A DNA stretch of 64,000 bases from Candidatus Caccalectryoclostridium excrementigallinarum (GTDB lineage: Bacteria > Bacillota > Clostridia > Christensenellales > UBA3700), in NCBI GenBank assembly GCA_018714485.1, contig DVNJ01000001.1, positions 94,985 through 158,984 of the forward strand, in the 5' to 3' direction. How positions within the stretch are numbered: the stretch's first letter is position 1; each line of letters begins with the position of its first letter. Of the stretch, positions 21,402-61,833 are shown in pieces. Under the pieces are notes generated by a model that saw only the letters and a list, made by a program, of their open reading frames with translations, was not told where the DNA came from and searched no databases. A program made the translations under genes and the position numbers.

Positions 21402-21978
21402 CGGCGAGCCTTTCCGCCTGCGATTTTTTCAGGTAAAGGGGCGAAAGTGAAGGCACAAAGGCGCCGCTTTGCGCAAGATATTCCGCCGCCGCAGCCATGG
21501 TCTCGGCTTTTAAGCTGCCTTCGTGGCGCACGACCTTGATCTCGAGCGCCGCGATCTCGCTCTCCTGAGCCGCCCCACACTCGCTCATATGCAGCCAATC
21601 GCCGTCAAATCGCGCCAGGTAGCTCTCCGTCGGACGGCATTGCAGCGCGACGGCAAAGCTGCCCTTTTCGCCGAAAGCGCGAACTTGCAGCGAATTGAGC
21701 GCGATGATTTTGGCGCCCGTGGCGCGCGCGAGCGCGTGAGCCGTCGAAACGCCTATGCGGATACCCGTGAAAGATCCCGGTCCGACCACGCATGCGATCG
21801 CGTCCAAGTCGCGCACGCTTATCCCCGCACGCGACAAAAGCTCGTCGGCAAAAGGCAGAATGAGCGAATTATGTTTTCTGCTGCCCTCGCCGCCGCTGTC
21901 TAAGGCGAAAACTTTCCCTTTTGCGCTCAACGCGAGGGTCAGGACCTTACCCGCGCAGTCAATCGAGAGGATATTCAT
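21391..21978 (-). CDS. tsaB: tRNA t6A biosynthesis protein TsaB
   Basis: Motifs GPGSFTGIRIG and PLYLKKSQAER. Confidence 0.92.
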   Translation of the reverse strand: MNILSIDCAGKVLTLALSAKGKVFALDSGGEGSRKHNSLILPFADELLSRAGISVRDLDAIACVVGPGSFTGIRIGVSTAHALARATGAKIIALNSLQVRAFGEKGSFAVALQCRPTESYLARFDGDWLHMSECGAAQESEIAALEIKVVRHEGSLKAETMAAAAEYLAQSGAFVPSLSPLYLKKSQAERLADGN

Positions 21979-22388
21979 AGCGCCGCCCCCTGTATTTCGA
22001 TCTCTCTGGGCGCGTCACCCGATCCCGAGATCGACACATTTATCACATTTTTCAGATCTTCGAACTTATTCCATTCGATCGCGCAGACGCCCTCTTTGTC
22101 GCCGAGATATTCTTCAAGCCCCAGCTCGTAAAGCTCGCTTGCGTCAGTGACGCGATACATGTCGTAATGATGCAAAGTAAGCCTGCCCTTATAGCTTTTC
22201 ATAAAGGTGAAAGTCGGACTGGTCACGACCTCTTTGACGCCGAGCGCCGCCGCAAGCCCCTTTGTGAAAGCGGTCTTTCCCGCCCCGAGGTCGCCCGTGA
22301 GCAAAATTATCTCCCCGCCTTTCAGCGTGCGGGCGAGTTTTTGCGCCAAAGCATAGGTGTCTTCGAGAGTTTTGCAGACAAATTTCAT
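21975..22388 (-). CDS. tsaE: tRNA t6A biosynthesis ATPase TsaE
   Basis: Motifs [20 protein letters not shown] and IEW. Confidence 0.95.
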
Positions 22389-22394
22389 AAAACA

Positions 22395-22423
22395 ATTATA
22401 ATATACTTGACATCTTAAAGCAA
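22395..22423 (-). promoter_or_regulatory. sigmaA promoter of tsaE (apparently leaderless)
   Basis: TTGCTT-17 nt-TATAAT, then 6 nt, then ATG 22388; no SD. Confidence 0.65.
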
Positions 22424-22435
22424 TCGTTTCATAAT
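22407..22435 (+). promoter_or_regulatory. sigmaA promoter of the riboswitch-ribU unit
   Basis: TTGACA-17 nt-CATAAT directly before the aptamer. Confidence 0.75.
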
Positions 22436-22441
22436 GAAATC

Positions 22442-22556
22442 AATCTTTGAGGTCGAGTGAAATTCTCTACCGGCGGTAAAGTCCGCTAACGCCTCCTCGG
22501 CGCCGAACGGGTGAAATTCCCGTACCGACGGTCAAAGTCCGGACAGGAAAGGAGTT
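22442..22556 (+). ncRNA. FMN (RFN)-class riboswitch, variant sequence; SD embedded in the P1 3' strand
   Basis: Two GTGAAATTC T-loop hairpins, ACCGGCGGT, AGTCCGC, CCGACGGT and AGTCCGGA; directly upstream of an ECF S-component gene. Confidence 0.92.
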
Positions 22557-22558
22557 TT

Positions 22559-23356
22559 ATGAAAAAAATCAAATTCAATGCGCGTTTTGTCGCGTGGACT
22601 GCCGTTTTTGCGGCGCTCGCTGCCGTTTTGCAGCTGCTCGAATTCCATTTGCCGATACTGCCCACTTTCTTAGCTGTGGACTTCTCCGAACTGCCCGCCG
22701 TCTTGGCGTCCTTTTCGCTCGGACCCACGTCGGGCGTCTTGGTCTGCCTGATCAAAAATCTCATCAAGCTCATCACCACGACCACGGGCGGCGTGGGCGA
22801 ACTTGCGAACTTTTTGATCGGCATCTTCTATGTCATTCCCGCGGGATTTATCTATAAATACCGTCATACCTTCGGCGGCGCGGTGATCGGCATGGTCGTC
22901 GGCATAGTCTGCTGCGGACTCATCAGCGTCCCGCTCAATTATTACATAACCTATCCCGTCTACTATAACTTCATGGCTCCGGACGCCATTTTGGGCATGT
23001 ACCGCGCCATCTATCCGGGAACAGAGTCCATTCTTCAGGCGCTGTTCATCTTCAACCTGCCCATGACCGCGGGCAAGATGCTCGTCAATTCGGCGATCAC
23101 GCTTTTGGTCTATAAAAAACTTTCCAACCTGATAAAGTTCGGCTTCAAGCGCAAGAAAAAAGCGGTCCCCGCGCAGACGGCGGCAGGCAACGTGGGCTGC
23201 GCGCAGATCGGAGAGAAACCTTCTTCGACTCGCACGGCGTCGAGATGCCCTTTTTGCGGCGCGGACTTAGACGCGAAAAACGCTGACGAGTGCCCTTACT
23301 GCAAGACAAAATTCGTCGCGGAAAACAAGCCGGACGAAAGAAAAGAAGACAAATAA
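22559..23356 (+). CDS. ribU: ECF transporter S component (RibU-like) with a C-terminal zinc-ribbon extension
   Basis: FLAVDFSELPAV, LIKNLI and GGVGELANF typical of RibU; FMN-class riboswitch upstream; tail CPFC-x10-CPYC. Confidence 0.82.
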   Translation: MKKIKFNARFVAWTAVFAALAAVLQLLEFHLPILPTFLAVDFSELPAVLASFSLGPTSGVLVCLIKNLIKLITTTTGGVGELANFLIGIFYVIPAGFIYKYRHTFGGAVIGMVVGIVCCGLISVPLNYYITYPVYYNFMAPDAILGMYRAIYPGTESILQALFIFNLPMTAGKMLVNSAITLLVYKKLSNLIKFGFKRKKKAVPAQTAAGNVGCAQIGEKPSSTRTASRCPFCGADLDAKNADECPYCKTKFVAENKPDERKEDK

Positions 23357-23842: not shown

Positions 23843-25036
23843 TTAATCGGCTGCGCCGAAATAATATGCGTAAGCCTGCGCCGTGAGCGGATACATTTCT
23901 CCGCCCTTTTTGCGCACGTTGTCATACGAAGCTTTAAGGCAGGCGCGAAAACCCTCTTTGAAATCGCTCAGCATGACGCGGCGCAGCTCGTCCACGCCCG
24001 GATAGTCGCGTCCCTCTTCGAGGACGTCGGCGCTGAAAATAAGTTTTTCCATAGTACTCATGCCCGCCCTTCCCGTGCAATGATAACGTATGCCGTTCAA
24101 TATCTCCTCGTCCTTCACGCCGAAGACGCTCTCGGCGAGCACCGCGCCCACGAACTGATGCTCCACGGGTTTACCCACGGCGTCCGCGGGAATGAGCTTG
24201 ACGTCGAAAGGTTCGGGACAGGCGACTTTCTGCCTGTCCTCTTCGTCCGCCTGCGGAGAAAGCGGCATTTTTGCCCTGTTGAGATCGAACACGGAACTGC
24301 CTTTGCCGCAGTCATGCAAGAGCCCCGCCAAAAACACTTTTTCCTCGTCTAACCTCAGGCGCAGCCTGACGTTGAGCATGAGGGCATATTCGCAGGTGCG
24401 CTTGCAATGCTCAAAGCGCGCGGGCTTGACCATTTGCGCAAGGCGGGTCAAAACGCGGGAATAATTGTTATAAACAGCGTTCTTTTCGATATATTCGGCG
24501 ACTTTCTCGTCAAGACCGACATAGTTGCCAAGCTCGGCGCGCAGGCGCGCCAAGGTGGAGGAGATGTCGGAAGGATAATAATCCATGACGCGGATATCCG
24601 CGCCCATGCCGCGCCAATAGTCGAGCGCGCGCTCGAACTCCCCGTCTCTGCCCGCCCTGCGGCAGACGAGGAAGGGGCACATTTTGATTATCTTTTCCGG
24701 CTCATGCCACTTTTTCAGGTCTATGAGGCTGTCTCCGCCGATGAGATAGTGCGCGCCGCGATATTTTTTCAGTACTTCGGGCAGCACTTCGGACGTGTAA
24801 TTCACGCCACCGACTTTAAGCTCGTGATCGTCGATGATGAACTTGTCCGAGCCGCGCGCGGCAATGCGCAGCATCTCGAGCCGCGTTTGCGCGCTCACGT
24901 TGCAGCTCTTATGCGGCGGGATCCCCGACGGCAGCAAGACCACCCTGTCATAGCCGCTCGAGAGGGCGTGACGGGCGATGGCGATATGTTCGAGATGAGG
25001 CGGATTGAAGGTCCCGCCGTAGATGACGTATTTCAT
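23843..25036 (-). CDS. nadD: Nicotinate-nucleotide adenylyltransferase NadD fused to a YqeK-type HD hydrolase
   Basis: N-terminal GGTFNPPH, IGGDSL..W and ISST; C-terminal RFEH, AGLLHDCGK, IRYHCTG, ADVLEEGRDYPGV. Confidence 0.9.
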   Translation of the reverse strand: MKYVIYGGTFNPPHLEHIAIARHALSSGYDRVVLLPSGIPPHKSCNVSAQTRLEMLRIAARGSDKFIIDDHELKVGGVNYTSEVLPEVLKKYRGAHYLIGGDSLIDLKKWHEPEKIIKMCPFLVCRRAGRDGEFERALDYWRGMGADIRVMDYYPSDISSTLARLRAELGNYVGLDEKVAEYIEKNAVYNNYSRVLTRLAQMVKPARFEHCKRTCEYALMLNVRLRLRLDEEKVFLAGLLHDCGKGSSVFDLNRAKMPLSPQADEEDRQKVACPEPFDVKLIPADAVGKPVEHQFVGAVLAESVFGVKDEEILNGIRYHCTGRAGMSTMEKLIFSADVLEEGRDYPGVDELRRVMLSDFKEGFRACLKASYDNVRKKGGEMYPLTAQAYAYYFGAAD

Positions 25037-61587: not shown

Positions 61588-61815
61588 TAAAAAAACTTTC
61601 GTCCCCCAAAGAGACGAAAGTTTACTGCCGTGGTACCACTCTTCTTCACGCTCCCCGACCATGTCGGCAAGCGCCTTTTCGGGATATAACGCTCCCACCG
61701 TCGCAAACTCATCGCCTGCACGACTCCCGGGCGAGATTCTCGCATATCTTCGTCCGCCTTTCACCTCACGGCGGCTCTCTGCACCCGAATTTGCGATACT
61801 GCTCCCGTTCACAGT
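61588..61815 (-). promoter_or_regulatory. T-box riboswitch, Leu (CUC) specifier
   Basis: Minus strand: AGTA, AGAGA, GGTGAAA loop, GAATCTC specifier (plus 61733-61735), T-box AGAGTGGTACCACG, terminator AAACTTTCGTC...GACGAAAGTTTTTTT. Confidence 0.93.
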
Positions 61816-61833
61816 CTTTTTTATATTGTCAAT

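Follow-up and report, generated by a model that had tools for sequence, protein, structure and literature searches.

An FMN-class leader with a coupled substitution at positions 10 and 47 upstream of a RibU-type transporter gene

The leader and the RibU-type gene

The window, by which we mean the whole stretch of 64,000 nucleotides that was analyzed, harbors a gene for a RibU-type ECF S component, oriented divergently from tsaE (21975 to 22388) and preceded by an RNA leader of the FMN class. The features of this locus are as follows:

22407 to 22435, forward strand: sigma-70-like promoter, TTGACA (22407 to 22412), 17-nt spacer and CATAAT (22430 to 22435); consensus match only, 11 of 12 positions
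22439 to 22558, forward strand: FMN-class aptamer (RF00050), P1 to P6 with a minimal P3; cmscan, 88.4 bits, E value of 7.8e-19
22441 to 22448, forward strand: 5′ strand of P1 (CAAUCUUU); six of its eight positions form standard pairs with 22549 to 22556, two being nonstandard
22450, forward strand: position 10, A (consensus G, the first G of the J1/2 GGGC); Rfam alignment read against the sequence
22487, forward strand: position 47, U (consensus G; the J3/4 GA becomes UA), partner of position 10; Rfam alignment
22549 to 22556, forward strand: 3′ strand of P1 (AAGGAGUU), containing the Shine-Dalgarno (SD) sequence AAGGAG (22549 to 22554); cmscan alignment and sequence
22559 to 23356 including the stop codon, forward strand: the regulated gene, a RibU-type ECF S component of 265 amino acids; PF12822, 91.8 bits, E value of 6.2e-26

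The match to RF00050 is full length (model positions 1 to 138), its score lies well above the gathering score of 66.2, and a genome-wide search with this family retrieved it as the sole RNA above the cut-off in the genome of the window (G000; 1.43 Mb, 95.9% complete). All six helices are intact in the cmscan alignment, as are the two T-loop-like loops, L2 and L5 (UGAAAUUC), while P3 is reduced to 4 bp and a 6-nt loop. An earlier note on this DNA, made from the sequence alone, had described an FMN-class aptamer carrying A at position 10 and U at position 47, and all three assignments are borne out by the Rfam alignment, with which our position numbering agrees, as it does with the published numbering (PMC12219259, Table 3). 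The remaining guanines G11 and G12 (22451 to 22452), G32 (22472), G62 (22505) and G84 (22527) are kept, as are the flavin-contact adenines A48 (22488), A85 (22528) and A99 (22543) together with G98 (22542); the retention of A48, G62, A85 and A99 had likewise been read by the earlier note.

Two promoter-like sites occur in the leader region, compared with a mean of 0.8 in shuffled sequence, and transcription from the predicted promoter given above would begin no more than a few bases from the 5′ end of P1. The ATG of the RibU-type gene (22559) is situated one base past the end of the RF00050 model, and no terminator-like site was found between the aptamer and this start codon. The cmscan alignment confirmed that the SD sequence forms part of the 3′ strand of P1, a placement from which the earlier note had argued for direct translational control; this claim is supported by the SD sequence in P1, by the lack of a terminator ahead of the ATG and by a promoter that would start the transcript at the foot of P1. 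Its description of the downstream gene as an uptake S component also agrees with the PF12822 match, which spans residues 10 to 185 of the 265. The product additionally possesses a C-terminal tail of approximately 70 amino acids outside this match (window positions 23150 to 23356), lysine-rich and then zinc-ribbon-like (CPFC...CPYC); homologs in relatives range from 200 to 274 amino acids in length.

Elsewhere in the window, a 397-amino-acid open reading frame on the reverse strand (23843 to 25036) combines a cytidylyltransferase-like domain of the NadD type with an HD domain, and a T-box leader on the same strand (61607 to 61821) scores 94.9 bits, just above its gathering score of 93.

Searches of the genome of the window for lumazine synthase (RibH) and riboflavin synthase (RibE) domains returned no match, while a flavokinase domain is present in an open reading frame of 323 amino acids. 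The genome therefore has the appearance of a riboflavin auxotroph, which would import riboflavin and make FMN from it.

Positions 10 and 47 in related genomes and beyond

RF00050 was searched in the genome of the window and in 60 related genomes, 57 of the 61 yielding a match at an E value of 0.001 or lower, and the resulting 86 matches were assigned, according to their sequence signature, to two groups, one of 55 ordinary leaders with high scores and one of 31 leaders of a second kind. This division was borne out by the downstream proteins, which differ accordingly: a homolog of the window transporter is encoded after 54 of the 55 ordinary leaders and a different S component after 30 of the 31 others, the two misses being failures of ORF picking.

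Among the 55 related leaders, compensatory changes were apparent in every helix from P1 to P6, 21 of 28 pairs having changed on both sides, and paired cells amounted to 90.8%, as opposed to 75.4% in shuffles and 37 to 54% when the pairing partners were slid. Such changes argue against a decaying aptamer, i.e., one whose pocket change has abolished binding and whose leader now persists as a constitutive, weakly structured 5′ UTR. The two nonstandard positions of P1 would agree with decay, as would the minimum free energy (MFE) fold of the leader alone, which did not recover P1 and was no better than shuffles (z = −0.96); such a poor fold is, however, to be expected of a ligand-dependent, multihelix junction, and it was left out as evidence. 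With a score 22 bits above the family cut-off, helices and both T-loop-like loops intact, and an A10 form that is kept across several genera, decay is considered very improbable.

The states of positions 10 and 47 in the 55 leaders were G/G in 24, A/A in 22 (21 as aligned and one, L049, read by eye because it was misaligned by one base), A/U in 6, and G/A, G/C and G/U in 1 each, counts which exceed the number of separate events since the leaders derive from kin genomes. A10 was never accompanied by G47 (0 of 28), whereas G10 was accompanied by G47 in 24 of 27 leaders. The two positions are thus linked, as the earlier note had supposed, and represent a coupled swap of one pair. A/U was observed in four genomes of the window's genus (G000, G004, G005 and G007) and in G035 and G060, while the sister species G001, G002 and G006 carry A/A upstream of orthologous genes, the encoded proteins sharing 49 to 84% identity with that of the window. 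All of G11, G12, G32, A48, G62, G84, A85, G98 and A99 were kept in each of the 28 A10 leaders.

The earlier note had placed weight on the Watson-Crick complementarity of A10 and U47, a reading which the relatives do not uphold: A10/A47 is the commonest A10 state (22 of 28), one sister species has U47 where another has A47, and G-G is the parent pair. The Watson-Crick interpretation was consequently rejected. G-G, A-A and A-U would all be allowed if the purine at position 10 paired via a non-Watson-Crick edge.

Published work, cited here and below from the portions of text that were available, offers a structural context for this swap. In the Fusobacterium nucleatum aptamer, G10 and G47 form a noncanonical pair (PMC12219259, section 13 and Table 3), so that A10 and U47 affect both partners of a single tertiary pair. 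G10, G11, G32, G62 and G84 are reported to contact the FMN phosphate (PMC12550836, PMC6298564 and PMC7573352); G10, G11 and G62 are described as unpaired with open Watson-Crick faces, the face of G10 being hydrogen bonded to the phosphate (PMC12550836), and an A at this position would accordingly be expected to cost or alter one phosphate contact. The available text of the same three sources does not include G47 in its lists of ligand-contacting guanines. The statement of the earlier note that both junction guanines line the pocket needs qualification for G47, which is described as the partner of G10.

Loss of G10 could, in principle, weaken phosphate recognition to the extent that riboflavin or another unphosphorylated flavin is sensed besides or instead of FMN, as the earlier note had proposed. 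Such altered or relaxed specificity would suit a leader which controls uptake only, and it would be in keeping with the place of G10 among the five guanines reported to bind the phosphate. The changes of Csp, a natural variant that rejects FMN, include A10 and A47 (PMC12219259, Table 3); the same source reports no FMN binding for a natural variant with A10, A11, A12, A47 and A62, nor for a natural aptamer with G10, A12 and A47. Our literature search found no binding data for an aptamer altered at A10 alone. The published FMN-rejecting variants, with which the earlier note had compared the leader, nevertheless change most of the pocket guanines (PMC6298564 and PMC12219259), whereas the leader described here changes one. 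Furthermore, the remaining pocket guanines, which would be free to drift if the phosphate were not read, are invariant in the 28 A10 relatives.

The distribution of A10 beyond these relatives was assessed in several ways. A loose A10 pattern was applied to one genome per species, and 56 of the 120 matches listed were FMN-class according to R1, a covariance model built from the alignment of the 55 related leaders (A1). Among the matches listed, these 56 comprised 42 true A10 elements and 14 G10 elements with J1/2 one base shorter, and position 47 of the 42 was A in 32, G in 6 and U in 4. By Pfam assignment of the genes downstream of these listed elements, A10/A47 preceded RibD in 8 cases and an ECF S component in 22 (none readable in 2), A10/G47 preceded an S component in 4 (none readable in 2), and A10/U47 preceded an S component in 3 (none readable in 1). 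Two A10/A47 FMN-class elements upstream of ECF S components, L156:1343-1462 from Limosilactobacillus and L119:4617-4736 from Lactobacillus, are without an A at position 99, since J6/1 reads GUAGAUA or GUAUAUA, and are possible true pocket variants.

For a more even sample, paired A10 and G10 patterns were applied to 401 genomes of the phylum; both demand that position 13 be other than G and that the L2/P3 frame be fixed, and they capture part of the class. The A10 pattern gave 11 matches, i.e., the window itself, 2 chance-like matches and 8 that were FMN-class by R1; 6 of these 8 were clear A10/A47 elements, all of them upstream of RibD, while the other 2 were ambiguous (J1/2 one base shorter, G47). 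The G10 pattern gave 264 matches in 229 genomes, counted by pattern alone. By these pattern counts, A10 accounts for approximately 3% of the class, in line with the conservation of G10 at >97% given in the available text of PMC6298564. The earlier note had made its reading hinge on whether A10/U47 is common among ordinary members of the family, and the answer differs with scale: A10 is the majority form in the window's order (28 of 55 leaders) but a minor one across the phylum.

A complete scan for G9-A10 ... U47-A48-A49 identified 25 stretches in 25 species, all of which were FMN-class and derived from Clostridia-type assemblies; 22 precede a homolog of the window transporter, none precedes ribD, and 3 are without a readable gene. 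In total, 14 A10/A47 aptamers were located upstream of ribD (8 among the listed matches and 6 in the 401 genomes). A10 occurs with A47 or U47 in otherwise ordinary members, 14 of them before ribD, and A10-U47 is tentatively treated here as within-family variation rather than as the failure of a defining feature of RF00050.

These distributions bear on the specificity question from both sides. The minority status of A10 (approximately 7 clear cases against 264 G10 pattern matches in the 401 genomes) and the occurrence of A10/U47 exclusively upstream of transporters (22 of 22 readable cases) would be compatible with a change of ligand. Transporter-only targets are, however, to be expected from the small number of A10/U47 lineages and from a genome in which RibH and RibE have no match, and A47 and U47 are swapped between sister species while A10/A47 controls ribD in the cases counted above. 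With all other pocket bases kept in the leader and ribD operons elsewhere under A10/A47 aptamers, we do not uphold the altered-specificity claim and regard a change or relaxation of ligand preference as unlikely.

The position of the start codon relative to the aptamer was also compared. In the window's order, it lies between −6 and +5 nt from the model end in 24 of 28 A10 leaders, compared with 1 of 27 G10 leaders, most of the latter being located 34 to 164 nt upstream of their genes. A tie between A10 and an expression platform with the SD sequence in P1 was considered and rejected, as A10 elements of the wider sample are located 34 to 190 nt upstream of genes; the association is absent there and is, therefore, read as a lineage effect.

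Gene context does not distinguish FMN from riboflavin as the signal. Three observations favor FMN: A10 is always accompanied by the other phosphate guanines, A47 and U47 are freely interchanged among sister species, and ribD operons are found under A10/A47 aptamers. We consider it probable that the leader is an FMN-sensing translational OFF riboswitch upstream of a riboflavin uptake S component. In the proposed mechanism, transcription would begin at the foot of P1, and FMN, made by the flavokinase from imported riboflavin, would occupy the junction pocket and cause P1 to close. The closed P1 would hide the SD sequence within its 3′ strand, such that the ribosome would be unable to load and riboflavin uptake would be throttled. 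A10/U47 is envisaged as a compensated substitute for the noncanonical G10-G47 pair, which would brace J1/2 against J3/4, leaving the phosphate pocket (G11, G12, G32, G62 and G84) and the flavin contacts (A48, A85 and A99) unchanged beside it.

A second FMN-fold leader in the same genome

The second kind of leader retrieved by the RF00050 search is represented in the genome of the window, outside the window itself, by one element:

G000:C1:7547-7678 (equivalent to L002:1501-1632), on another contig: second FMN-fold leader; RF00050, 52.1 bits, below the family cut-off

Of the 37 genomes of the window's family that were searched, 30 contain a leader of this type, as does a single genome from a different family. 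In the 31 sequences, which were chosen by the RF00050 search without a pattern, no variation is seen at G10, G11, G32, A48, G62 and G84, and 30 sequences retain G12, while position 85, canonically A, is occupied by C in 29 cases and by U in 2; position 46 is A, position 47 is C, and position 99 is variable (A, C or U). The T-loop motif of L2 is usually lost; in addition, P3 has an extension and little of P4 is left. R2, a covariance model derived from these sequences, matched 100 of the 100 loci searched, and the signature pattern occurs in at least 119 species. In the R2 alignment, two-sided changes are seen in 16 of 24 pairs and paired cells amount to 97.9%, values which are model fitted and include many columns fixed by the pattern. 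Columns free of the pattern, read across 94 distinct sequences, gave C in 86, U in 3, A in 4 and G in 1 at position 85, A in 86 at position 98, and A in 57, C in 23 and U in 14 at position 99.

The gene following the second leader encodes an S component of PF07155 (76 to 118 bits in five examples), the family to which the B6 transporters PdxU and PdxU2 belong (PMC9997740, available text). A kinase gene stands next after the transporter in 27 of the 84 listed loci with enough DNA, 35 of the 119 listed being too short. As assigned by Pfam on 18 examples and by seed BLAST, the kinases among these listed loci comprised 17 that are PdxK-like, 9 that are APH/fructosamine-kinase-like and 1 with the kinase first. 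Six PdxK-like examples scored 205 to 256 bits against the NCBIfam pyridoxamine kinase model, three of them passing its 231-bit cut-off. In the genome of the window, the APH-type kinase open reading frame (L002:2486-2824) is cut by the contig end, and BLAST with this 113-amino-acid fragment was too insensitive, finding 6 of 62 second open reading frames. APH/fructosamine-kinase-like open reading frames also occupy the place of the pyridoxamine kinase after a PdxU-family gene at L249:3825-4718, L282:1834-2727 and L353:6814-7731. Searches of G000 for PdxS, PdxJ and a PF08543 kinase returned no match, and the APH-type kinase which follows the PdxU-family gene is a candidate nonorthologous pyridoxal kinase.

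Within the window's family, PdxS is confined to one genus (5 of 5 genomes), and these five are among the seven genomes without the second leader, which is present in 29 of the 31 PdxS-negative genomes; as the PdxS-positive genomes form a single clade, this exclusion counts as a single event. The second leader of the window's genome has its own promoter-like site and is followed by a hairpin and U-run, which was read by eye as a terminator; the automatic scan found no terminator after this leader.

We tentatively suggest, from the arrangement of sequences and genes, that the second leader may be an FMN-fold riboswitch respecified to sense PLP or PMP as a phosphorylated form of vitamin B6, a possibility to which we assign somewhat less than an even chance; FMN or something else could still be the ligand. 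Our literature search found no description of a riboswitch for PLP or PMP and no report linking an FMN riboswitch with pyridoxal kinase and ECF. In its available text, PMC6593275, the one source found to mention both riboswitches and PdxU, classes 114 gut genomes as B6 auxotrophs and marks them "missing PdxK?", and the APH-type kinase would, if this suggestion is true, be nominated for that missing function. The second leader would then represent an FMN-fold RNA reused for vitamin B6 control and would matter more than the leader in the window; respecification of the FMN fold to drive an ECF S component may be found at the second leader rather than at the A10/U47 leader.

Comparison with known FMN-fold systems

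We class the leader in the window as an RF00050 member in which one tertiary pair adopts an uncommon state. Its relatives illustrate how a double pocket substitution can reflect the compensated exchange of a single tertiary pair rather than a change of ligand, and the G-G, A-A and A-U states constitute natural covariation evidence for the G10-G47 contact. Such information is of use in screening riboswitch classes for true specificity variants and in judging FMN-riboswitch drug targets.

In overall architecture, the leader resembles the FMN riboswitch (RFN element, RF00050; F. nucleatum aptamer, PDB 3F2Q), with which it shares the six-helix junction and the T-loop-like L2 and L5, and other RF00050 aptamers, with which it shares the flavin contacts A48, A85 and A99 and the phosphate guanines G11, G32, G62 and G84. 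Its association with a riboflavin uptake gene is also that of FMN switches which precede riboflavin transporters. It differs from the F. nucleatum aptamer in carrying A10-U47 in place of G10-G47 and in its minimal P3, and from the closest FMN systems in an expression platform which consists of P1 with the SD sequence and nothing else.

The variant FMN subtypes 1 and 2 described by Atilho, Perkins and Breaker in 2019 (PMC6298564), as far as the available text of that source describes them, have most of the guanines of the ribityl-phosphate region replaced by adenine and reject FMN, while retaining positions 48, 85 and 99. Subtype 1 possesses an extended P3 (P3a/P3b), a ribosome-binding site hidden in P1 and riboflavin-transporter-like genes downstream, whereas subtype 2 is an ON switch for efflux pumps. 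Csp, whose changes take in A10 and A47 as noted above, is a natural variant of this sort. By that same description, the leader in the window shares with these subtypes only the placement of the ribosome-binding site in P1 and the transporter target: it alters G10 alone among the phosphate guanines, with G11, G12, G32, G62 and G84 kept, it lacks the extended P3 of subtype 1, and an uptake S component rather than the efflux pump of subtype 2 lies downstream. The second FMN-fold leader likewise differs from both subtypes as they are described in this text.

A further parallel is provided by the engineered orthogonal aptamers M11 and M15 (PMC12219259, available text), which share the fold and owe their altered specificity to G-to-A substitutions within the phosphate pocket. 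These aptamers change G11, G12 and G62, together with G84 in M15, and keep G10 and G47, while the leader described here does the reverse.
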